Of a stretch of DNA of 64,000 nt, positions 8,128-56,618 are shown piece after piece. The notes below the pieces were generated by a model, which saw only the letters and a list, made by a program, of their open reading frames with translations, searched no databases and was not told where the DNA came from. The stretch is from NCBI GenBank assembly GCA_038209745.1, contig JBBQXJ010000003.1:1-64000 (forward strand). Reading direction: 5' to 3'. Position 1 is the first letter of the stretch. The number at the start of each line of letters is the position of its first letter. Made by a program: the position numbers and the translations under genes. Source of the stretch: Verrucomicrobiota bacterium (lineage in GTDB: Bacteria > Verrucomicrobiota > Verrucomicrobiia > Limisphaerales > CANJSG01).

Positions 8128-9885
8128 TTACTTCTTCAGTTCGGCGATCCGGGCATCGAGCTTCTTCAGCATGATCGTGATGAAGGGCTTGCTTTTGTCG
8201 TTGGCGGCGCTGAGGCGTCCTGCGAAGTCGGCCTTTTGTTTCTCCAGCTGGGCGACATCGGTGACGCCGGAGATGAAGGCCATGAACTTGTGGACGACGG
8301 GCTTCTGCTCCGGAGAAAGACCGGTGAGGTCGGCGTCGGCGTCGGTGGTGGTGCCGGCTTTCCGGGTGTAGGTGGCCACGCTGCGGTTCTCCGCGGTCAG
8401 ATACTTCTTCGCCACGCGCACCACGTCTTCGGCGGTGACGGCCTGGAGCAGCGGGCCTTCGTCGTTGATTTCGCGCCAGGTGCCGGAGCCCTCGCTGAAC
8501 ATCAACTGGTAGAGGATGGGCATGTTGGCCGAGAGCTTGCGATATTGGGCGGCGGCGAACTGGTTCTTCACCTTCTGCAGTTCGAGGGCGGGCACGGGCT
8601 CGGTCTTGAGCTTTTCCAGCTCGGCATAGAGGCCCTTCTCCAGATCGTCGGGCTTGAAGCCGTCCGCGACCTCGCCGCCGGCATTGAAGAGGCCGGCCCA
8701 CTTCTGCGACTGCTGCTGGGCGTAGGCGGCGGTGGCGACCTTCGAGCCCAGGACCAGCCCCTTGTAGAAGCGGCCGGTGCGGCCGTTGAGCAACTGGGCC
8801 AACACGTCGAGCGCGTAGGAGTCCTTGTGGCGGAAGGGAACGCTGTGCCAGACGATGTCCACCTGCGGATTGGTCTCGGCTGCGGCGTCCATGCGCTTTG
8901 CGGCTTCCTGCTTCACCTCCAGGGTCACGACATCGGGCGCGGGCCTGTCGCCCTTGGGGATGCGACCGAGGTATTCCTCCGCCAAGGCCAGCGTCTTCGC
9001 CGGGTCGAAGTCGCCCACCAGGATGGCCGTGAGGTTCTGCGGCTGGTAATAGAGCGCGTAGAACTTGTCCGCGTCGCTTTTCGAGATCGAGGGGATGTCC
9101 GAGGGCCACCCGAGGACGGGCCAACTGTAGGGGTGGGACTCCCAGACCATGGAGTTGAACTCTTCGCCGAACTTGCCCAACGGCGTGGATTCGGTCCGCA
9201 TCCGCCGTTCCTCGAAGACCACGTCCCGCTCGGCGTAGAACTCGCGGAAGACCGGGTGCAGCAGCCGTTCAGATTCCATCCAGAACCACAGCTCCAGCTT
9301 GTTGGCCGGCACGGTGATGAAGTAGGCGGTAAGATCCTCCGTGGTGAAGGCGTTCATGCCCGAGCCGCCGGCCGCCGTGTAGATCTGGTCGAACTCGTTC
9401 TTCACCAGAACCGAGCGCTGGTCCTCGATCAGCTTCTTGAACTCCTTCTCCAGCTCCTTCCAGCGCGGGGTCATGTTCTCGTATTTCGAGGGGTCGTCGA
9501 TCTCGCCCCGACGATATTCCGCACGGACCTTGCGCTCCTCTTCCCGCATCTGGTCCCGGACGCGTTCCTGGTCGGCCATGATCTGTTGATCCTTGGCGTA
9601 GTCCTTGGTGCCGATGGTCGGGGTGCCCTTGAACATCATGTGCTCGAAGAGATGGGCGATGCCGGTGATGCCGGGCCGTTCGTTGGAGCTGCCCACATGC
9701 GCGACCCAGCCGCCGGCCACGTTCGGTTCCCCGTCGCGGTGGACGAGGAGCAGCTTCATGCCATTGGACAACACGTGCTCCTGCACGGGCAGTTCCTGGG
9801 CGGTCAGCAGGGTGGTGAAGAGAAGGCAGAGGAGCCCCGTCGCAACGCGCAGGGTCCGGAACGGAACGGAAAGGGGTCCAGTCAC
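8128..9885 (-). CDS. M16 family zinc peptidase, catalytic subunit
   Basis: GIAHLFEHMMFKG (HxxEH), NAFTTED and ERDVVFEERRMR; start estimated at GTG 9885 ahead of a signal peptide. Confidence 0.9.
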   Translation of the reverse strand: MTGPLSVPFRTLRVATGLLCLLFTTLLTAQELPVQEHVLSNGMKLLLVHRDGEPNVAGGWVAHVGSSNERPGITGIAHLFEHMMFKGTPTIGTKDYAKDQQIMADQERVRDQMREEERKVRAEYRRGEIDDPSKYENMTPRWKELEKEFKKLIEDQRSVLVKNEFDQIYTAAGGSGMNAFTTEDLTAYFITVPANKLELWFWMESERLLHPVFREFYAERDVVFEERRMRTESTPLGKFGEEFNSMVWESHPYSWPVLGWPSDIPSISKSDADKFYALYYQPQNLTAILVGDFDPAKTLALAEEYLGRIPKGDRPAPDVVTLEVKQEAAKRMDAAAETNPQVDIVWHSVPFRHKDSYALDVLAQLLNGRTGRFYKGLVLGSKVATAAYAQQQSQKWAGLFNAGGEVADGFKPDDLEKGLYAELEKLKTEPVPALELQKVKNQFAAAQYRKLSANMPILYQLMFSEGSGTWREINDEGPLLQAVTAEDVVRVAKKYLTAENRSVATYTRKAGTTTDADADLTGLSPEQKPVVHKFMAFISGVTDVAQLEKQKADFAGRLSAANDKSKPFITIMLKKLDARIAELKK

Positions 9886-10051
9886 GGGGAGGAAGTTGGC
9901 AGTCCGGCCCGGACCGTCAACCGGCAACCGTGAGTCTGTCCGGTCGCGGCAAGCAAGGAGGGCGGGGCGGCGGAGGGCTCTCGAACGCCCCCAGTTTCGG
10001 GCCTCGCCTTTCTGTCGCGATCTCGGAAAATCTCCCCAGATTTTCCGAGCC

Positions 10052-13000
10052 ATGCGCGTTTGTTTTTCATCCCCGTTTTTTCGACGAAGAGCCGTGCTCT
10101 CCCTGCTGCTCCCCGTCGCCCTGGCATTGTCCGGGTCCGTCGCGTCGGCGGCGACGGATTTCGCCAAGGAGATCGAGCCCATCCTGATCAAGCGCTGCTA
10201 CGAGTGCCACGGGCCCGACAAGCAGAAGGCCAATCTGCGGTTCGACTCCCGCGCCGCCGCGATGAAGCCCGCCAAGTCGGACCGGATCGCCGTGGTGCCC
10301 GGCAAGCCGGAGGACAGCGAGCTTCTCTTCCGCGTCACCTCGACCGATTCGGATGAGTTCATGCCGCCCAAGGGTGAACGGCTGGATCCGGGGCAGATCG
10401 CGGCGCTTCGCCGTTGGATCGCCGAGGGAGCGGTCTGGCCGGAAGTGGATGCCACGCGGCACTGGTCCTTTCTCGCGCCCGTCCGGTCCGAGCCGCCCCA
10501 GGTCAAGTCGGCCTCGACACCGGTCCACAACGCCATCGACCAATTTGTTCTGGCTCGTCTGGAAAAGGAGGGCATGACCCAGCAGCCCGAGGCGGACCGC
10601 GCCACTCTCATTCGCCGCGTGTCGCTTGATCTGACCGGACTGCCGCCTTCGTGGGCCGAGGTGGAGGCGTTCGAAAGAGACGCCTCACCCGATGCCTATG
10701 CCAAGCTCGTCGATCGACTCCTCGCATCTCCCCACTACGGCGAACACATGGCGCGCGGCTGGCTGGATCTCGCCCGCTACGCCGATTCCAACGGCTACCA
10801 GGTCGATCTCGCCCGCTCGGTCTGGCCCTATCGCGAATGGGTCATCAACGCGTTCAACCGGAACCAGCCCTTCGACCAGTTCACCATCGAGCAGCTCGCC
10901 GGCGATCTCCTCCCGAACCCGACCTTGGAGCAAAGGATCGCCACCGGCTTCAACCGCAACACCAAGGTCAACGACGAGGGCGGGGGCGATCCGGAGGAAT
11001 ACCGGGTCAAGGCGGTCAAGGATCGCGTCGCCACGCTGGGCTCGGCCTGGCTCGGACTCACGTTGAACTGTGCCGAGTGCCACACGCACAAATACGACCC
11101 GATCACCCATGAGGACTACTACCGCCTCTACGCCGTCTTCAACAACACGACCGATGCGGGCAACTATAGTCTCGGTCCGAACGTCCAGGTGCCGAAGCCC
11201 GATCTGAGCGAGACGGAAAACTACATCGGCGAGCGGCTGAAGCAGTCCAAACAGGATCTTGCCATGGCCGCCGTCCGGCTCGGGACGGAACAGAAAATGT
11301 GGGAGAACTCAGTCGCGAAACAGGGCGACGTCTGGCGCGTGCTGAACCTGACGAATGCCAATTCCACCGGTGGATCCAGCTTCACGAATCTGCCCGACGG
11401 CTCGTTGCTCGGGTTTGGTGTGAACCCGATCTACGACACCATCACGGTGGACGCGGGTACCGATCTCGCCGGAATCACCGCCGTCCTCCTGGAAGTGCTT
11501 CCCGATCCCAGCCTGCCGAAGAACGGCCCCGGTCGCTGGCGGGAGACGGGCAACTTCATCCTCGATGAATTCGGCATGAGCGCCACGCCGCTCAACGAGG
11601 CAGCGCGCCCCGCCAGCACCAACATCGTCTTCTCCGGCGCCACGGCGGACTGGGAGCAGGAATACTACCGCGCCGAACACGCCGTGGACCGGAATCCCAA
11701 GACCGGCTGGGCCATCGGCCCGAAGTTCGGCGAACGCCATTTCCTCGTCGCCCGTCTCAAACAGTCGGCGGGTTACCCGGGCGGCAGCCGGCTTTCGTTC
11801 CGCTTCGACCACTACCACGGCAACAGCCATTGCATCGGGCGCTTCCGCATCTCCGTCACCACGGAGAAGGATCCGGCCGCGCTGTGGCCCGTGTCCGAAG
11901 AAGTCCGGGACGCCCTCACGACAAACCGGGCGAAGCGCGCTCCGGAGCAGGTCGCATTGCTGGCCGAAGCCCATCGTTCCTCGTCCGAAACCGTCCGTTC
12001 GCTTGAGCGTGAAATCTACCGGCTGGAGCAGAAACAGAAGCGGATCGCCGCCCAGAATTTCACCACGCTCGTCATGCAGGAGCGGACCAATGCGGAACCG
12101 CGCGAATCCTATATCCAGATGCGCGGCGACTTCCTGACCAAGGGCAAGGACGTCACGCCCGGAGTTCCCGCTTTCTTGCCGCCGTTGCCCGGCAATGAAC
12201 CCGCCAACCGTCTCGCGCTCGCCCAGTGGCTGGTCGATCCCGCCAATCCGTTGACCGCCCGCGTCACGGTGAACCATTTCTGGGAACGCTGCTTCGGCAC
12301 CGGTCTGGTCAAGACCAGCGAGGACTTCGGCCGCCAGGGCGAAGCGCCGTCGCATCCCGGGCTGCTCGATTGGCTCGCGACCGAATTCATCCGCACCGGC
12401 TGGGACGTGAAAGCCATGCAGAAGCTGATCGTCCTGTCGGCCACTTATCGCCAGAGCGCCGTCACCGACGCGACCCGGCAGGAGAAGGACTTATACAATC
12501 GGCTTTTGTCACACGGCCCGCGCTTCCGCATGGATGCCGAAATGATCCGCGACCACGCGCTCGCGGTCAGCGGCCTGCTGAATCCCAAGGTCGGCGGCCC
12601 GAGCGTCTATCCCGTGCAGGTGCCGAATCTGTGGAAGGAGATCGGGTTCCTCCGGCCCGAGATCGGCATGGACGAATGGCCCGTCAGCGAGGGGCCTGAT
12701 CTGTATCGCCGCGCGGTCTACACCTTCTGGCGCCGCGTCTGCACCTACCCGACGTTCGCCACCTTCGACGCCCCCAGCCGCGAAGTCTGCGCCGCCCGCC
12801 GCCCGCGCACCAACACGCCATTGCAGGCGCTCGCCGGCCTGAACGAACCGACTTTGCTGGAAGCCGCCCGTGTCTTCGCCCAGCGCATCCTCACGGAAGG
12901 CGGCCGCACTGATGAAGAACGGATCGTCTTCGCCTTCCGAGCAAGCGTGGACCGCTCTCCCACTGACCTGGAGAAGGCCCGATTGCTCGCATTCGTGCGA

Positions 13001-13162
13001 CAGCAGCAAAGCGGCTTTGCCGGTGAACCCAAGTCGGCCGAGCAATTCATCGCCGTCGGTTCTGCCGACCGGCCCGCCAGTATCGACCAACGCCGGCTCG
13101 CCGCCTGGATGATGGTGGCGAACGTGTTGTTCAACCTGGATGAAACGCTGACGAAAGGGTGA
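10052..13162 (+). CDS. Planctomycete cytochrome c / DUF1549 / DUF1553 (PSD1) protein
   Basis: CYECH heme motif, HWSF, LIRRVSLDLTGLPP, WLDLARYADS, CAECHTHKYDP, NPLTARVTVN, TNTPLQAL; start ATG 10052. Confidence 0.93.
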   Translation: MRVCFSSPFFRRRAVLSLLLPVALALSGSVASAATDFAKEIEPILIKRCYECHGPDKQKANLRFDSRAAAMKPAKSDRIAVVPGKPEDSELLFRVTSTDSDEFMPPKGERLDPGQIAALRRWIAEGAVWPEVDATRHWSFLAPVRSEPPQVKSASTPVHNAIDQFVLARLEKEGMTQQPEADRATLIRRVSLDLTGLPPSWAEVEAFERDASPDAYAKLVDRLLASPHYGEHMARGWLDLARYADSNGYQVDLARSVWPYREWVINAFNRNQPFDQFTIEQLAGDLLPNPTLEQRIATGFNRNTKVNDEGGGDPEEYRVKAVKDRVATLGSAWLGLTLNCAECHTHKYDPITHEDYYRLYAVFNNTTDAGNYSLGPNVQVPKPDLSETENYIGERLKQSKQDLAMAAVRLGTEQKMWENSVAKQGDVWRVLNLTNANSTGGSSFTNLPDGSLLGFGVNPIYDTITVDAGTDLAGITAVLLEVLPDPSLPKNGPGRWRETGNFILDEFGMSATPLNEAARPASTNIVFSGATADWEQEYYRAEHAVDRNPKTGWAIGPKFGERHFLVARLKQSAGYPGGSRLSFRFDHYHGNSHCIGRFRISVTTEKDPAALWPVSEEVRDALTTNRAKRAPEQVALLAEAHRSSSETVRSLEREIYRLEQKQKRIAAQNFTTLVMQERTNAEPRESYIQMRGDFLTKGKDVTPGVPAFLPPLPGNEPANRLALAQWLVDPANPLTARVTVNHFWERCFGTGLVKTSEDFGRQGEAPSHPGLLDWLATEFIRTGWDVKAMQKLIVLSATYRQSAVTDATRQEKDLYNRLLSHGPRFRMDAEMIRDHALAVSGLLNPKVGGPSVYPVQVPNLWKEIGFLRPEIGMDEWPVSEGPDLYRRAVYTFWRRVCTYPTFATFDAPSREVCAARRPRTNTPLQALAGLNEPTLLEAARVFAQRILTEGGRTDEERIVFAFRASVDRSPTDLEKARLLAFVRQQQSGFAGEPKSAEQFIAVGSADRPASIDQRRLAAWMMVANVLFNLDETLTKG

Positions 13163-13173
13163 AAAACAGAGTG

Positions 13174-13201
13174 TTCAGTTGTCAGTGATCAGAATTCAGT
13201 C
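13174..13201 (+). repeat. Heptamer array (nTCAGnn x4) upstream of the four-helix-bundle gene
   Basis: TTCAGTT GTCAGTG ATCAGAA TTCAGTC, with TCAG every 7 nt. Confidence 0.75.
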
Positions 13202-13216
13202 TCCGTGGAGAACGCC

Positions 13217-13666
13217 ATGAATTCGACTACGCTTCCCTATGCAAAGAGCTTTCGCGAGCTGCTCGTCTATCAGAGGCAACGCCAGCTTTCGCGCGAGGTG
13301 TTCAAGGTCTCAAAGACGTTTCCGTCCGAAGAGCGCTTTTCGCTGACTGATCAGATCCGCCGTTCAGCCCGTTCCATAGGGGCACAGATCGCCGAGTCAT
13401 GGGCGAAACGCGCCTTCGAACGACACTTCGTTTCCAGGCTCAGCGATGCCGACGCTGGACAAATGGAAACACAGCACTGGTTGGAGACGGCCAAAGACGA
13501 CGGCTACCTTTCGGCACTGGACTACGCCCGAATGCTCGGACGCTGTGAAGAGATCGGCCGGATGCTGGGCAGTATGATGGAACGGTCCTCTTCATTTTGC
13601 CGCGGCGGCGTCCTGCCCGATGAATCCGCCCGTTACTATTGCGCAGAAGCACCCACGGGCGACTGA
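13217..13666 (+). CDS. Four helix bundle protein (23S rRNA IVS-protein / TIGR02436-like family)
   Basis: [62 protein letters not shown]; alternative start GTG 13205. Confidence 0.92.
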
Positions 13667-13688
13667 AGACTGAAGACTGTCTACCGAA
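13661..13688 (+). repeat. Heptamer array (GACTGAA-type x4), inverted relative to 13174..13201
   Basis: GACTGAA GACTGAA GACTGTC TACCGAA; GACTGAA is the reverse complement of TTCAGTC. Confidence 0.75.
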
Positions 13689-13704
13689 TACTTTTCACCC
13701 TGCC

Positions 13705-15150
13705 ATGCACTCCCTCCCTCCTCCGATTCTCGATTCCCTCCGCGCCACCACCCGTCGCCGGTTCCTCCAGCAGTGTGGCTCGGGCATGGGCGCGTTGGCG
13801 CTGGGGTCGCTGTTCAACGACAAGCTCTTCGCCGCCGGCAGCGCGGTGCCGATCATCGGGCAGCCGCATTTCGCGCCCAAGGCGAAGAACATCATCTATC
13901 TCTTCCAGTCCGGCGGGCCGTCGCATCTTGATCTCTTCGATCGCAAGCCGGAGCTTCAGAAGCGTGATGGCCAGCAAGTGCCCGAGGAGCTCGTGAAGAA
14001 CATCCGCCTCGCGCAGATCGGCAAGGAGGCCAAGCTCCTGGCTTCGCCCTACAAGTTCGCCCAATACGGCAAGTCCGGCGTCTGGCTCAGCGAACTGTTG
14101 CCGCATCTCCAGACCGTCGCGGACGACGTCTGCTTCGTGCAGGGCTTCTACTCCGAGGCCTTCAACCACGATCCAGCGACGATCTTTATGAACACCGGCG
14201 CGCAGCTTGCCGGTCGGCCCGCGATGGGTTCGTGGTTCAGCTACGGTCTCGGCAGCGAGAACAAGGACCTGCCCGCGTTCGTCGTGCTCATGACCGGCGT
14301 GGGCCAGCCGTTGACCAACGCGTCTTGGGGCAGCGGCTTTCTCCCGACCGTCCACCAGGGCGTGACCATGCGGTCGCAGGGCGATCCCGTGCTCTACGTC
14401 GGCAATCCGCACGGCATGGGCAGCGAGCGCCGCCGTCAATCGCTCGACGCCATCCGCGATCTCAACCAGATGCGCTACGACGTGTTGAAGGATCCCGAGA
14501 TCGAGACCCGCATCGCCTCCTACGAACTCGCCTACAAGATGCAGACGAGCGTGCCCGAGGTCATGGACATCTCGAAGGAGTCGCCCGCGACCCACGAGGC
14601 CTACGGCGCTTCGCCCGGCCGCGCTTCGTTCGCCAACAACTGCCTGCTCGCGCGCCGGCTCGTGGAGCGCGGCGTCCGCTTCGTGCAGCTCTACCATCGC
14701 GGCTGGGACCATCACGGCGGGCCCGACGGCAACCTGGTCTATGACTTGAAGAAGCGCTGCGCCGAAACGGATCAACCCGCCGTCGCGCTGATCAAGGATC
14801 TGAAGGAGCGCGGTCTGTTGGATGAGACGCTGGTGCTGTGGGGCGGGGAATTCGGTCGCACGCCAATGATGCAGGGCGCGCTCAAGCCGGATCAGATCGG
14901 GCGCGACCATCATCCGCACGGCTACACCGTCTGGATGGCCGGCGGCGGGATCAAGCCGGGCACGGTCTATGGCGGCACGGACGACTTCGGCTTCTACGCC
15001 GCCGAGAACAAGGTCCACGTCCACGATCTGCACGCGACCATTCTGCACCTCTTCGGCATCGACCACCTGAAGCTCACCCATCGCTTCCAGGGCCGCGACT
15101 TCCGTCTGACGGACGTTCACGGAGAAGTGGTGAAGGGGATCCTGGCCTGA
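13705..15150 (+). CDS. DUF1501 family (alkaline phosphatase/sulfatase-fold) Tat protein
   Basis: RRRFL Tat motif, [58 protein letters not shown]. Confidence 0.93.
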
Positions 15151-15207
15151 CCGATCTGAGCGGTCGTGGGATCGACGTTGGCCGTGGAACGATGGCCGGC
15201 TTTTGGG

Positions 15208-15543
15208 TCAGTTCGCCTTGCCGTAGTTCTTCACCAGATAGTCCACCACGGGATCGATCTTGTCGGCGGCCAAGGGTGCGCCGAACTTTTTCTGCATCTT
15301 GGTGACGGTGCCGGTCCATTGGGCCTTGGTCATCGGCGGCTGGCTGGAGATGTAGTCCACGGAGTGGCAGATCATGCAGTTGCCCGTGACGAGATCGGCT
15401 CCGGGGCCCGGTTTCAGCTTCGCGGTCTCGGCCGGCAGCTTCCATGAATCGATCGGGGCTTCTGCGCCCATGGCGAACCAGGCTCCGAAGGAAACGACGG
15501 CGACAGCAGCGGCCACGGCCGCGAGAGAGGTGATGGCTCGCAT
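15208..15543 (-). CDS. sorB: Monoheme cytochrome c, SorB-like
   Basis: Signal peptide, NCMICHSVDYI, WTGTVTKMQKKFGAP; directly downstream of the SorA-like gene. Confidence 0.8.
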   Translation of the reverse strand: MRAITSLAAVAAAVAVVSFGAWFAMGAEAPIDSWKLPAETAKLKPGPGADLVTGNCMICHSVDYISSQPPMTKAQWTGTVTKMQKKFGAPLAADKIDPVVDYLVKNYGKAN

Positions 15544-15546
15544 GGT

Positions 15547-16803
15547 TCAGGAAGCGTTGACGGTGACGGATTCGACGACGTTGCGCATGTAGCCCGACGG
15601 GTTCCACAGCGGCTCGAAGGGTTGCGATTGGCCGATGATGTTGGTGGCTTTGACCAGCAGGCGCTGTTCTCCGCTGGCCTTCGGTGTGAAGGGCGCCGTC
15701 CATTCGCGGAACGAATATTTGCCCAGATCCTTGCCCAGCTCCGCCGTGCTCCAGGTGCGACCGGCATCGGCGGAGAAGACCACGTCGCGGATGCCGTAGC
15801 CGCCATCGAAGGCGATGCCCCGAACGGTCAGCGATTGGCCGGTCTTCACCTTGGCCCCGTCCTCGAGGCTGGTGATGAAGGAGCGGACGTTGAAGCGGGT
15901 GATCGGCACCGTTTTGCCGGGAGCCGTCCCCGGCGGGACACAGGCGCCGGCGTTGTCGGGAATGCGGTAGGCGGGGTCCATCCAGAAGCCCTTGAACTGC
16001 GAATCCACCACCGTGATCTCGTTCAGGTGCTTGATCCAATAGGTGCCGTAGTGGCCTGGGACGACGAGCCGCAGCGGGAATCCGTTGAGCCAGGGCAGCG
16101 GTTCGCCGTTCATCTCGTAGGCCAGGAGGATGTCGGGATCGAGCGCGTGGTCGGTGTCGAGCGCCTTGATGAAGTCGGGGATCGTCGGCAGCGGACCCTT
16201 GTCCAGACCGTTGAAGACGACCTGCACGGCGTCCGCTTCCAGTCCCGCCTTGTTCAACACGTCGCGCAGCCGGACACCCGTCCAACGGGCGTTGCCCATG
16301 GCGCCGTTGCCGAGTTGGCCGCCGGGCACCCGGGGCTTGAAGAAGCCACGGCTGTTTCCGGAGCACTGGTTCACAGCGACGATCTCCACCGGCTCGAACT
16401 TCGCCTTCAGGTCGGCGACGGACAGCTCCAGCGGCGTCTTGACCTTGCCCTTCACGGTCACGCGGAACGCCTCGGGCGTGAGCAGCTCGGGTGCGGGCGG
16501 GGCGATGGAGAGATGGTAGCGGACGAAGTGGGCGTCGTTCGGCGTGAGAATGCCCTCGTTGAAGACGGAGAACGGCGTCTCCAGCTGGGGTGGGCGCGAC
16601 GTGAGGAGCAGCAGCGGCCGTTTTTGCGGATACTTCACGAGCCGCCGTTCGCCGTTCTCGAACGGCAGCGTGACCGACTCCTGGGCCAATGCGACGGCGC
16701 CGGGGAGCAGGGCGGCCGCCGTGGCCGCGCGCAGAAGAAAACTTCGTCGGTTCAAGCGGCCGTTCTGTTCAAGTCGATCCATGGTGGGCTTGGACGGAGT
16801 CAT
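15547..16803 (-). CDS. sorA: Molybdopterin sulfite:cytochrome c oxidoreductase subunit A (sulfite oxidase family)
   Basis: Tat RRSFL; RPPQLETP, FVRYH, QCSGNSRG (Mo-ligating Cys), NGFPLRLVVPG, WNPSGYMRN; start 16803 or 16782. Confidence 0.88.
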   Translation of the reverse strand: MTPSKPTMDRLEQNGRLNRRSFLLRAATAAALLPGAVALAQESVTLPFENGERRLVKYPQKRPLLLLTSRPPQLETPFSVFNEGILTPNDAHFVRYHLSIAPPAPELLTPEAFRVTVKGKVKTPLELSVADLKAKFEPVEIVAVNQCSGNSRGFFKPRVPGGQLGNGAMGNARWTGVRLRDVLNKAGLEADAVQVVFNGLDKGPLPTIPDFIKALDTDHALDPDILLAYEMNGEPLPWLNGFPLRLVVPGHYGTYWIKHLNEITVVDSQFKGFWMDPAYRIPDNAGACVPPGTAPGKTVPITRFNVRSFITSLEDGAKVKTGQSLTVRGIAFDGGYGIRDVVFSADAGRTWSTAELGKDLGKYSFREWTAPFTPKASGEQRLLVKATNIIGQSQPFEPLWNPSGYMRNVVESVTVNAS

Positions 16804-16985
16804 GGCTAGGAACATTGAGCTGAATTTGCAGTTTACGCCAGATTTCCCGCTGTCCGGCATGGTGGGTCGCACGCGTCAAACTCAACTTGGGCAGCGGGCA
16901 GGACTGCGCGCCGATGTTCCGAGGCCCCGGCTCCAATTTTCTCGCCATTTGTCGGTCGACTTCCAAAGTCTCGGGAGGGTTTCCC

Positions 16986-17711
16986 ATGCGTCTCCTCTAC
17001 GTCGCTGATCTCCACTACACGCTGAAGCAGTTCGACTGGCTGCTCGCCCGGGCGGGCGACTACGACGCGACGGTGATCGGCGGTGATCTGCTCGACCTTG
17101 CCTCTCCCTTGGACCAGGACGTCCAGATCGCGATCGTGGAGAAGTATTTCAACCTGCTAAGGAAGAAGGGCCGCCTCGTGGTCAGCTCGGGAAACCATGA
17201 CGGCGACAGCCGCAACGAAGCCGACGAATCAGTCGCCGACTGGCTACAGCACTGTCGAGCGGCGGGAGTGCATGTGGATGGGGACGGCTTCGATCTGGGG
17301 GGGTGGCGCGTCTCGGTCTGCCCTTGGTGGGACGGGGACCAGTCCCGTGTAGAGCTGGAGTCGTTCCTGGAAACCGAGGCGCAGAAGAAAAAGAGCCGTT
17401 GGCTCTGGGTGCACCATGCGCCTCCGGAAGGGGCGCGAACCTGCTGGACCGGTCGGAAATTCGTCGGTGACGAAATGCTGCGCGGATGGATCGAACGCTT
17501 CCGGCCGGACATTGTATTGAGCGGCCATATCCACAATTCCCCATTCTACGAAGCGGGTTCATGGATCGACCGCATCGCCGATACTTGGGTCTTCAATCCC
17601 GGCCGGCAGATCGGGCCTGAACCCACTACGATCACGCTCGATCTCGACGCGATGACGGCGGAGTGGAATTCACTGGAGAGCAGCTCAGTCCGCGACCTCA
17701 GGATCGCGTAG
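16986..17711 (+). CDS. Metallophosphoesterase (calcineurin-like)
   Basis: DLH, GDLLD, GNHD, HHAPP, GHIH and NPG motifs; start ATG 16986. Confidence 0.9.
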   Translation: MRLLYVADLHYTLKQFDWLLARAGDYDATVIGGDLLDLASPLDQDVQIAIVEKYFNLLRKKGRLVVSSGNHDGDSRNEADESVADWLQHCRAAGVHVDGDGFDLGGWRVSVCPWWDGDQSRVELESFLETEAQKKKSRWLWVHHAPPEGARTCWTGRKFVGDEMLRGWIERFRPDIVLSGHIHNSPFYEAGSWIDRIADTWVFNPGRQIGPEPTTITLDLDAMTAEWNSLESSSVRDLRIA

Positions 17712-18176
17712 TGTCGTGTCGCGTGGAGCGATGCGCTTCTTCGGCTGTCGGTGCATCAAGGTGTCGAGGACGCTGTCCACCATGCCCAAGTGGTCGTGCC
17801 CCTCGAACTGGTGCTTCACGTCCACGAGATACTTGTTCACCGCGTCGAGCCGTCGGGCCAGCAGCTCGCAGAGCTGGAGACAGGCGGGCGGGTTCTGTTC
17901 GAGAAAGACTCTCGGATTCTCCACCACGATGACCGTGGACGGCCGCGTGGTCCGGACGGACGCCGTATGGGGGATGTCCAGCAGGACGGAGAGATCGCCG
18001 AAGACCGCGCCGGGATCGGAACACCGGGCCACCTCCACGTCGTCCTTGATCACCTCGACCGCGCCCTCGACGAGGACGAACAACACCCGGTCCGCGCCGC
18101 CCTGGGACAACAACGTTTCACCCTCGGTCATGGACCGGGAGGGCTGCCCGTGGAGCGCTTCAAGAATCGCCGACAT
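17685..18176 (-). CDS. Stand-alone cyclic nucleotide-binding domain protein
   Basis: LLSQG, LFVLVEGAVEV, FGDLSVLLDIPHTASV cNMP-binding cassette; no HTH; start 18176 or 18224. Confidence 0.85.
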   Translation of the reverse strand: MSAILEALHGQPSRSMTEGETLLSQGGADRVLFVLVEGAVEVIKDDVEVARCSDPGAVFGDLSVLLDIPHTASVRTTRPSTVIVVENPRVFLEQNPPACLQLCELLARRLDAVNKYLVDVKHQFEGHDHLGMVDSVLDTLMHRQPKKRIAPRDTTLRDPEVAD

Positions 18177-19716: not shown

Positions 19717-20442
19717 TCAGCTGCGCTTCTTGGCGGGGGTTATGGACTGGGCTTTTGCGGCGCGCAGTTTGACGAGGGCGGCTTCGGCGGCGGCGCTCTC
19801 CGCGAGCTTCTTGCTGCGGCCGTCGCCCCGGGCCAGTTCGGCGTCTTGGTGGCTGACGGAACATTCGAAGACGCGATCGTGGTCGGGGCCGGTGAACTGG
19901 ATCAAGGTGTAGACGGGCGGTCCGGAGGAATCCGACTGGAGCATTTCCTGGAGTTCACCCTTTGGATTCCCCTCGTCGGAATCGAATGACACCGCGTCGA
20001 GGATCTCGCTGAACTGCGCCTGTAGGAAACGCCGGGGCACCTCCAGCCCTCCGTCAAGATACATGGCGCCGAGCAGCGCCTCGTAGGCGTCGGCCAAGGC
20101 GGACTGTTTGGTGCGCCCTCCGGATCGTTCCTCGCTCGAGCTCATGACGAGGTACCGGCCGAGGTCCAGCTTCGTGGCCAGGTCGGCCAAGGTCCGGGAA
20201 TTGACCAGCTGCGCGCGGGCTTTGGTCAAGGGGCCTTCCATCACTCCGGGAAAGCGTTGGTAGAGTTCGTGGGTCAGGGTGAGCCCGAGCACGGAATCGC
20301 CGAGGAATTCGAGGCGCTGGTTGTGTTGCGTGGTGCCGCGACCGCTGTTGAGGCGGGAAGGATGGGTCATCGCGAGCCGGAGCAACGCCGGGTCGCGGAA
20401 TCCATGGCCGATGGCCGTCTGTAAGTTCGCCAGTTCTGACAC
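19717..20442 (-). CDS. rnc: Ribonuclease III
   Basis: HNQRLEFLGDSVL signature, ADAYEALLGAMYLDGG, C-terminal dsRBD (NPKGELQE...GPDH...SKKLAE); start estimated at GTG 20442. Confidence 0.95.
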   Translation of the reverse strand: MSELANLQTAIGHGFRDPALLRLAMTHPSRLNSGRGTTQHNQRLEFLGDSVLGLTLTHELYQRFPGVMEGPLTKARAQLVNSRTLADLATKLDLGRYLVMSSSEERSGGRTKQSALADAYEALLGAMYLDGGLEVPRRFLQAQFSEILDAVSFDSDEGNPKGELQEMLQSDSSGPPVYTLIQFTGPDHDRVFECSVSHQDAELARGDGRSKKLAESAAAEAALVKLRAAKAQSITPAKKRS

Positions 20443-56198: not shown

Positions 56199-56618
56199 AT
56201 GCCCAAGAAACCTACATCCCGCCGCCGCCTGACCCGCAAGCAGCAGCGTGATATCGACATCGAGATCGGCTTCCTGGAGGGACTCGTCCGGCGCGATCCC
56301 GAATACGTGGAGGCCTTGGAGATTCTCGGTGACGGCTACACCAAGCGCGGGCGCTTCGAAGAGGGGCTTGGCATCGACCAACAGCTCGTCGCCCTGCGTC
56401 CGACCGATTCCGGGATGTGCTTCAATCTCGCCTGCAGCCTCTCCCTGACCAAGCGACTGGACGAAGCCCTGAACGCCCTGCGCCAGGCGATCCAGTTTGG
56501 CTACAGGGACTTCGAATGGCTTCTGAAGGATCCGGACCTCCGCCGTGTCCGCGAGGACGAGCGGTTCGCGGTCATCCTCGCATTGATCGAAGGTGAACTT
56601 TCGCAGCAGGGCTCCTAG
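56199..56618 (+). CDS. Small TPR protein
   Basis: LGDGYTKRGRFEEGL, FNLACSLS, GYRDFEWLLKDPDL; start ATG 56199. Confidence 0.8.
   Translation: MPKKPTSRRRLTRKQQRDIDIEIGFLEGLVRRDPEYVEALEILGDGYTKRGRFEEGLGIDQQLVALRPTDSGMCFNLACSLSLTKRLDEALNALRQAIQFGYRDFEWLLKDPDLRRVREDERFAVILALIEGELSQQGS

Follow-up and report, generated by a model that had tools for sequence, protein, structure and literature searches.

A heptamer-bracketed S23p/Avd-like gene cassette between the DUF1553 and DUF1501 genes of a Verrucomicrobiota bacterium, a probable relative of the intervening sequences of 23S rRNA

The first 64,000 nucleotides (nt) of contig JBBQXJ010000003.1, from a Verrucomicrobiota bacterium of the order Limisphaerales (assembly GCA_038209745.1), are here called the window. 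They carry an operon in which a small open reading frame (ORF) for a four-helix-bundle protein is wedged between a DUF1553 gene and a DUF1501 gene and is bracketed by two inverted arrays of 7-nt units. We propose, with a probability of about 0.6, that this is a selfish gene cassette of the intervening sequence (IVS) type, residing in the mRNA of a protein-coding operon instead of in 23S rRNA. The unit consists of a clade-specific 7-nt array, a promoter-less S23p/Avd-like gene and the same array inverted, and it lies precisely in the interval from one host gene's stop to the next gene's start, in the orientation of the host genes. Because the same packaged unit is found between unrelated gene pairs in many phyla, it looks like a little-known mobile insert. 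The case is built on the anatomy of the locus, the recurrence of the unit across phyla, the co-inheritance of repeat and protein clade, the many junctions occupied, and gain, loss and decay at orthologous junctions. An earlier reading of the window's letters (the original prediction) had taken the cassette for an insertion unit that is looped out of, or processed from, the operon mRNA. That reading is partly supported: the insertion unit and the flanks of its paralogs stand, and the looping-out or processing is still a prediction; the arm mismatches show no sense-strand preference for G·U pairs.

The features of the locus, in window coordinates, are as follows.

9605..13162, plus strand: upstream host gene with PSCyt1, DUF1549 and DUF1553 domains (open frame, Pfam).
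13156..13209, plus strand: left arm, purine/G-rich, with the outer stem AGGGTGAA, four heptamers and the inner CTCCGTGG (sequence, fold).
13174..13201, plus strand: left heptamers TTCAGTT, GTCAGTG, ATCAGAA and TTCAGTC (NNNCAGT / ATCAGTR family).
13207..13210, plus strand: GGAG, 6 nt 5' of the ATG, a possible Shine-Dalgarno site of the cassette ORF, judged from sequence.
13217..13666, plus strand: cassette ORF, 149 amino acids (aa), PF05635 / TIGR02436, S23p/Avd-like (Pfam, NCBIfam, predicted fold).
13652..13702, plus strand: right arm, pyrimidine/C-rich, with four heptamers and the outer stem TTTTCACCC at 13692-13700 (sequence, fold).
13661..13688, plus strand: right heptamers GACTGAA, GACTGAA, GACTGTC and TACCGAA, inverted relative to the left array.
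13705..15150, plus strand: downstream host gene, DUF1501, starting with the ATG at 13705 (Pfam/NCBIfam).
20011..20394, minus strand: host gene with an RNase III domain, outside the cassette, a candidate cutter of the arm duplex (domain match).

The coordinates and letters of the ORF and of both arrays, including the exact complementarity of the innermost heptamer pair, are as first described. The stop codon of the DUF1553 gene (TGA, 13160-13162) and the codons just before it fall within the outer stem, and the cassette ORF runs from the ATG at 13217 to a TGA at 13664-13666 that lies inside the first right-arm heptamer. The right array ends 16 nt, and the right arm 3-4 nt, before the ATG of DUF1501. 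No promoter-like or terminator-like site was found inside the cassette, PADLOC returned no match, and there is no Rfam match at 12900-14000; the cassette is not located in a 23S or 16S rRNA helix.

Complementarity between the arms spans 13156 to 13702 overall, and its outer part joins GGGTGAAAA (13157-13165), which includes the DUF1553 stop codon, to the right-arm outer stem. A bulged stem of about 30 bp had been predicted; the pairing is present, and its extent had been understated, for the arm duplex comprises 41 pairs (13156-13208 with 13653-13701) and takes in that stop codon. Its energy is -57.8 kcal/mol, compared with -21.9 +/- 3.8 in 300 shuffles of the right arm. In the folding check that had been suggested, the two ends are paired with each other in the minimum-energy fold of 13150-13720. 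The locus scores 31 in the gapped inverted-repeat test against 17.5 +/- 1.9 in 100 dinucleotide shuffles, none of which scores as high, and its score exceeds all 90 controls of shifted geometry (control maximum 26). The 7-nt periodicity is also evident, with a lag-7 self-match of 0.50 in the left arm and 0.62 in the right arm against 0.25 +/- 0.07 in random 43-mers of the contig, of which 0.04% reach 0.58 or more. It should be mentioned that an ungapped repeat search over 9 kb finds 38 inverted pairs and does not have the arms in the 25 longest, because bulges split them, and that inverted repeats of 16-33 nt often arise by chance in the local G+C-rich DNA. RNAduplex on long windows (150 x 250 nt) is uninformative, giving about -100 kcal/mol whether the input is a cassette, a shuffle or a shifted control.

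The protein, searched with queries that began at 13238, seven residues short of the ATG, matches PF05635 (23S_rRNA_IVP) at 3.6e-29 (101.5 bits against a cut-off of 33.8) and TIGR02436 at 3.2e-27 (94.9 bits against a cut-off of 24). Pfam and NCBIfam confirm the original naming of all three genes, the TIGR02436-like ORF and its DUF1553 and DUF1501 neighbours. The bAvd and DivGenRetAVD profiles give weak matches below the NCBIfam cut-offs, and the PHROGs family 'Avd protein of DGR' (diversity-generating retroelement) is matched at 4.2e-13. The predicted structure has four helices, with a predicted local distance difference test (pLDDT) value of 89.6, and its last ~22 residues are predicted to be disordered. 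Foldseek aligns it with 2GSC (Xcc0516) at a template-modelling (TM) score, normalised by target, of 0.93, with 4DWL (bAvd) at 0.90 and with 2RLD (BT_0352) at 0.89, and structures of DGR ribonucleoproteins are matched too. Going by these comparisons with the modelled fold, the window protein is closest to the S23p proteins 2GSC and 2RLD, and then to bAvd. Relatives in Chloroflexota, Bacteroidota and Acidobacteriota are 44-61% identical to it, whereas the paralogs in its own genome share merely 16-31%. A search of a phage collection gave one weak match, and a plasmid search gave 39 records, mostly from Nostocales.

The expectation that other members of the family would carry analogous flanks was borne out by family-wide tests. 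Within the order, we assembled 49 distinct loci from the source genome and 60 relatives (five from the source genome itself, 27 with full flanks, 15 further stronger matches and two at paralogous junctions), after dropping L013 and L014 for their short flanks and L051 as a duplicate. The inverted-repeat score exceeds the 95th percentile of 90 shifted-geometry controls at 44 of the 49 PF05635 loci, with a median of 37 against 19 in the controls (Mann-Whitney p = 4e-18, which overstates the support because several loci are orthologs of each other). All 100 shuffles are beaten at 39 loci and not at the other 10. A period of 7 or 8 fits best in 33 of the 38 left arms. The arms are strand-asymmetric, with G (40%) and A (28%) predominating in left arms and C (41%) and T (27%) in right arms, and the right arm usually begins at the ORF stop (median offset 2 nt).

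The cross-phylum scan of loci started from an alignment of eleven relatives and took the best 80 of 585 relatives. These are 41-67% identical to the window protein and come from Chloroflexota, Verrucomicrobiota, Planctomycetota, Bacteroidota, Acidobacteriota, Desulfobacterota, Lentisphaerae and others. Full flanks were available for 71 loci; 56 of these score above the 95th percentile of 134 controls, and 47 score higher than any control. A period of 7 fits best for 48 of the 54 left arms and 49 of the 54 right arms. Most of these loci share the unit family of the window, NNNCAGT (ATCAGTG, ATCAGTA, ATCAGTT). On plasmids of Nostoc and Leptolyngbya, homologs that are annotated as 'four helix bundle protein' have inverted AGCAGGG-type arrays on both sides. 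Shine-Dalgarno-like 4-mers occur in the left arms at 2.9 versus 0.1 per 100 nt. All three frames are stopped in 43 of the 95 left arms and in 21 of the 95 right arms, with no clear rule.

Several loci of these sets have unusual arrangements. An ORF-less hairpin, made of a left array, a short loop and a right array, adjoins an ORF-bearing cassette upstream at L009 (G039:C1; G, C and L denote genomes, contigs and loci), and another adjoins one downstream at L024 (G005:C70). At L032 (G021:C78), a cassette with (GGCGAAT)n arms stands inside a frame of 1113 codons that is open across the whole locus, with Eco57I/N6_Mtase matches downstream; either the cassette has inserted into a gene, or the frame is open by chance. 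L122, in a Limisphaerales metagenome-assembled genome, has tandem cassettes, with another PF05635 gene immediately upstream of the first. At L084 and L052 the PF05635 frame remains open a long way upstream and is apparently fused to the preceding frame.

The source genome (140 contigs, 92% complete) has six PF05635 matches, each between co-directional genes: DUF1553|DUF1501, ABC|ABC, beta-lactamase|MacB-type, LutA-type|LutB-type, E2|E3 and one junction on C14. By eye, complementary flanks are present at all six, each with a different unit (GGTTGTx, xAGTCxx, GATGCCG and the 8-mer xxGGAGTx among them). The gapped inverted-repeat test is passed by three of the five scored loci (C3, C12 and C84); C95 and C51 fail it and show periodic complementary units by eye alone, and C14 is outside the scored set. 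The C14 copy (56296-56514, minus strand), lying between two genes, is weak and probably degenerate (45.9 bits), with a 17-nt inverted repeat that takes in the last codons and the stop of the upstream gene. Heptamer arrays are also frequent away from such genes: 28 GATGCCG-type arrays were counted, as against none in the shuffled genome, and a gapped search gives about 8 of the 28 an inverted partner with no ORF between. A strict search for paired arrays of this type found none, the pairing based on Tandem Repeats Finder (TRF) being likewise too strict. The orientation of these arrays relative to long ORFs, which were taken without a gene caller in G+C-rich DNA, is 14 versus 17. Each of the seven genomes of the genus has 27-68 GATGCCG-type matches (none for the reversed control pattern), and 34 genomes of other genera have nearly none (5, 1 and 1 in three genomes). 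As a wider observation, TRF lists 183 merged arrays of period 7 or 8 in the source genome, such as C13:5082-5230, C65:1233-1353, C33:46402-46563 and C36:382-452, and one array consists of 10 perfect GACTGAC units.

The repeat family follows the protein clade. On a FastTree phylogeny of 116 proteins, from which four of fewer than 80 aa were omitted, four repeat classes defined by pattern change 21 times, compared with 49.0 +/- 2.6 times in 300 label shuffles (minimum 40). Relatedness alone can yield such tracking; we therefore speak of co-inheritance and not of co-evolution. In the C12-type clade, GATNCNG-type units are kept in four other families of the order at 52-58% protein identity, and the genomes of those relatives contain 0 or 1 further arrays of this type. 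At such divergence, neutral sequence would be randomised, and this conservation therefore points to constraint on the GATNCNG-type unit itself. We give even odds to the idea that the cassette's own protein, probably a pentamer, recognises the heptamers. The original prediction of a protein that may recognise the 7-nt units has indirect support, in that the repeat family co-varies with the protein clade; the recognition itself is predicted.

Where Pfam supports a neighbouring gene, it almost always points in the cassette's direction. Counting Pfam-supported neighbours, the upstream gene in the order set is co-directional at 35 loci and opposite-only at one, and the downstream gene is co-directional at 39 and opposite at three; across phyla (the 36 best loci), the counts are 30 versus 2 upstream and 31 versus 0 downstream. 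Within the order, junction types recur (DUF1553|DUF1501, DUF1585-88-92|DUF1552, HlyD|AcrB-type and DUF485|SSF). Across phyla, the window's own clade occupies at least 20 unrelated operon junctions, which include E1beta|E2, histidine kinase|LuxR regulator, UDP-glucose dehydrogenase|methyltransferase, TrpF|TrpB, CysD|CysN, MlaE|MlaF, MoxR|DUF58 and PdxA|TruD.

Orthologous junctions in related genomes are found occupied, empty or decayed. The HlyD|AcrB-type junction is empty in G000, with a 16-nt spacer, and occupied in G002, G005 and G006; the DUF485|SSF junction is empty in G000, with an ATGA overlap, and occupied in G005 and G006; and the NusB|PHP junction is empty in G000 and occupied in relatives. 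At the LutA|LutB junction, G000 and G003 carry a cassette, G005 has none, and G004 and G006 have decayed copies. In G004, the core of the ORF has been replaced by a palindromic element, and in G006 (L163, C480) a rearranged remnant with a 109-aa membrane-like ORF is left, in which a duplicated 159-nt piece of the LutB 5' end is fused to the last codons of a PF05635 gene. An unrelated ORF of ~165 aa occupies the same junction in G001 (L162, C163). Together with the one clade and its heptamer family recurring in many unrelated junctions, these states among congeners support the transposase-free insertion unit of the original prediction. An empty DUF1553-DUF1501 junction had also been expected in relatives. 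Such a site exists at another DUF1553|DUF1501 junction, where a divergent PF05635 cassette is present in G003 and G004 and absent from G005 (flanks 88-93% identical), but none was found for the window's own locus: the only true ortholog found, in G013, is occupied, and the G002 contig ends before the junction. That true ortholog (G013:C159) has flanks 75% and 87% identical and a protein 72% identical to those of the window, and its arms belong to the same family with another sequence and another number of units.

Small inserts of several kinds seem to gather in operon junctions. At the DUF1553|DUF1501 junctions L041 (G003:C6) and L049 (G004:C214), an insert of ~700 nt with an antitoxin-like and a PIN/VapC-like ORF (named by eye) lies exactly between the host genes, with a palindrome in front. 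Three others, L038 (G004:C102), L039 (G001:C25) and L043 (G001:C63), contain a palindromic element of ~230 nt, with the ends GGAAATTAGCC...GGCTAATTTCC, that resembles a miniature inverted-repeat transposable element (MITE). A 116-aa membrane-like ORF and (GCATCCG)n, with 8, 4 or 2 units, are found just before the DUF1501 ATG at L038, L039 and L050.

At the strain level, contigs from four sediment metagenomes that overlap 12700-14200 have the window cassette without indels, and they yielded no empty allele. The one contig that covers all of 12700-14200 (run X8) differs from the window by 24 substitutions and no indels, and four of the five substitutions inside the cassette ORF are non-synonymous. 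A single metagenome 'joint' considered as an empty allele was rejected as a paralog, with 22-nt sides and 368 foreign letters. In the run X8 contig, 13 of the 24 differences fall within 12802-12854, 53 nt of the DUF1553 gene, mostly at third codon positions, and this cluster may be a small recombination tract.

Two well-known classes of element invite comparison. In the REP/REPIN (repetitive extragenic palindrome) and RAYT (REP-associated tyrosine transposase) system, a single gene stands between inverted copies of a short repeat, and the repeat also occurs gene-free as intergenic hairpins. The present cassettes are similar in that the gene is flanked by an inverted short repeat that is also found as ORF-less hairpins; they differ in having no HUH/Y1 transposase domain, in being built of tandem 7-8-mers and not of single palindromes, and in array numbers that do not go with the presence of the gene. 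MITEs are small intergenic elements with terminal inverted repeats and presence/absence polymorphism. The cassettes share all of these properties, and unlike MITEs they have a conserved ORF, no target-site duplication that we could see and a fixed orientation relative to the host genes.

The closest known system is the S23p-type IVS of 23S rRNA, the setting in which genes of this family first came to light. As described in the sections of PMC4990558 available to us, the IVS of Coxiella burnetii is a 428-nt element in helix 45 of 23S rRNA with an S23p ORF in its loop; the inverted repeats at its ends build a 28-bp stem that RNase III cuts in the middle, and a purine-rich stretch is followed by tandem GACAGAT heptamers whose number varies among strains. 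The same sections describe its ORF as decaying and probably untranslated, and report that Xcc0516 is a pentamer (PMC4990558). Set beside that partial account, the operon cassettes are alike in being units of ~430-550 nt with a PF05635/S23p ORF in the loop, in their terminal inverted repeats forming a long stem, in the tandem heptamers in the arm and the purine-rich stretch before the ORF, and in having no promoter of their own, so that they would be transcribed within the host transcript. The link to rRNA IVSs and to Avd that was first suggested is borne out by this anatomy as well as by Pfam, PHROGs and the predicted fold. The differences, within the same limits of the source, are that the window cassette sits in a protein-coding operon junction and not in a 23S rRNA helix, and that its ORF is intact, as it is in ~100 relatives, whereas that of Coxiella is reported to be decaying.

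A second likeness is to families of orphan heptamer repeats. The available text of PMC4679880 describes TAACTGA repeats near start codons, with hairpin-forming pairs and an unexplained cross-phylum distribution, and proposes a translational role for arrays upstream of start codons in Beggiatoaceae, Cyanobacteria and Bacteroidetes; that of PMC4692102 gives the GGGAATC / GGGGA(C/T)T repeats the same three traits of hairpin-forming pairs, position near start codons and unexplained cross-phylum spread. For the 7-bp short tandemly repeated repetitive (STRR) hairpins of cyanobacteria, at hupS-hupL, transcript stabilisation or translational coupling has been suggested (PMC2670836, likewise seen as an extract). 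The arrays described here are similar to those in the published extracts in being tandem 7-nt intergenic units that end near a start codon, with convergent hairpin pairs and a patchy spread across phyla, and the arms in the window's clade include ATCAGTT units (e.g. L080), the reverse complement of TAACTGA. They differ in bracketing a specific gene family, whereas the published repeats, as far as those extracts go, come without an associated gene; the terms '23S' and 'helix bundle' are absent from the available text of the TAACTGA (PMC4679880) and GGGAATC (PMC4692102) papers. We found no description of S23p/PF05635 cassettes in operon junctions in the literature covered by our search, most subscription journals and supplements lying beyond that coverage.

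On the proposal of an IVS-type cassette, the following course of events may be imagined. The cassette would be co-transcribed with the operon, and the arms would then pair into a bulged duplex of ~41 bp, which would bring the DUF1553 stop beside the DUF1501 start. With a little less than even odds, RNase III would cut this duplex as it does in rRNA IVSs and release the cassette RNA; such excision has been shown for the Coxiella rRNA IVS, in the part of the source at hand, and is conjectural for the window cassette. The heptamers, finally, might be read by the cassette's own protein.

Several observations weigh against this proposal. The ties between clade and junction within the order also fit long vertical descent with losses, and since the only ortholog found for the window locus is also occupied, the window copy may be old and immobile. 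No target-site duplication was visible by eye at the occupied L042 and L048 compared with the empty L047. No nuclease, recombinase or transposase domain was recognised in the ORF, for which Pfam gives PF05635 and bAvd only. The loci in the flank tests are mutually related, so that the p-values overstate the support. An intact C12-type gene was found in G000 and G003 only, among the seven genus genomes, with remnants in two more; in other words, arrays are abundant with or without the cognate gene, contrary to the idea that the protein mobilises its arrays. Finally, mismatches between the arms at 39 loci are G·U-compatible in 92 cases and of the A·C type in 112 (p = 0.18), and isolated mismatches at 95 loci are divided 71 to 68 (p = 0.87). 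Selection seems, from these sequence comparisons, to act on the repeat motif and not on exact RNA pairing.

The last point leads to the main rival, which we regard as unlikely. It holds that the inverted arrays are the ends of a DNA element, serving its insertion, excision or maintenance by binding protein or forming hairpins as double- or single-stranded DNA, and that the RNA duplex is an unprocessed by-product. The symmetric mismatch spectrum, without wobble bias on the sense strand, is what such an element would show, and a heptamer core that is conserved across phyla at ~50% protein identity is more than pure pairing would require. The existence of occupied, empty and decayed sites speaks in its favour too, as do the ORF-less hairpins and solitary arrays of the source genome (the 28 GATGCCG-type arrays, ~8 with an inverted partner). 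It is opposed by the lack of a recognisable transposase, recombinase or nuclease domain in the ORF and of a visible target-site duplication, and by the processing of the homologous rRNA elements as RNA, according to the partial source cited above. The near-invariant orientation, which suggests dependence on read-through, also stands against it, although a promoter-less DNA element would show the same.

It is improbable, in our view, that the cassette is a domesticated regulatory module, in which the arrays are intercistronic control sites located just ahead of the next start codon, with a part in coupling translation, in the stability of the mRNA or in binding protein, and the protein is a regulator of the flanking genes and not selfish. 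It is true that 3-4 nt separate the end of the right arm from the DUF1501 ATG, that Shine-Dalgarno-like 4-mers abound in left arms, and that the extracts on orphan arrays and on the hupS-hupL STRR hairpins suggest roles of this kind, in translation, or in transcript stability or coupling. On the other hand, one cassette clade is found in functionally unrelated operons, orthologous junctions work without a cassette in close relatives, copies decay, and four of the five strain differences in the window ORF are non-synonymous.

A remnant or part of a DGR, with the protein as an Avd accessory factor, is very improbable and already contradicted. The weak bAvd and DivGenRetAVD matches, the PHROGs Avd match (4.2e-13) and the fold matches to 4DWL and the DGR ribonucleoproteins would suit it, and the cassette does resemble bAvd (4DWL, 8UBE) in its four-helix-bundle fold and weak profile matches. 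However, no RVT_1 match was found anywhere in the 92%-complete genome, and no direct repeat of the template/variable type at 9000-18000, where no direct repeat is longer than one of 37 nt at 70%; in structure and in sequence alike, the protein matches the S23p proteins 2GSC and 2RLD best. With neither a reverse transcriptase match nor a template/variable repeat, the element is therefore not a diversity-generating retroelement. That the ORF is an ordinary small gene whose flanking complementarity and periodicity arose by chance in G+C-rich intergenic DNA has next to no probability, for even with many chance inverted pairs and unranked arms in the ungapped search and 10 of 49 order loci failing to beat all shuffles, it is contradicted by the position-specific tests, the shifted controls, the periodicity and the recurrence over ~100 loci in several phyla.

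If the IVS-type proposal is extended, PF05635 proteins and their clade-specific 7-nt arrays might form one pan-bacterial class of mobile cassette, living in rRNA hairpin loops as well as operon junctions; the orphan heptamer families (STRR, TAACTGA and GGGAATC-type) might then be their arms, solo arms or ORF-less derivatives, and a pentamer might read the heptamers. This extension is speculative, and we hold it to be somewhat doubtful.

The function of the S23p proteins encoded by IVSs has been an open question since the 1990s, and so is the origin of the abundant heptamer repeats in several phyla. If S23p proteins and heptamer repeats are indeed one element, both questions would become testable by simple experiments, and the known inserts would be joined by a transposase-free type that resides in operons and leaves them intact. 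This matters for the annotation of operons and for the reading of 'hypothetical' small genes between conserved gene pairs, and it bears on the spread of genes between phyla, given that the window protein has relatives 44-61% identical in other phyla and paralogs of 16-31% identity in its own genome.

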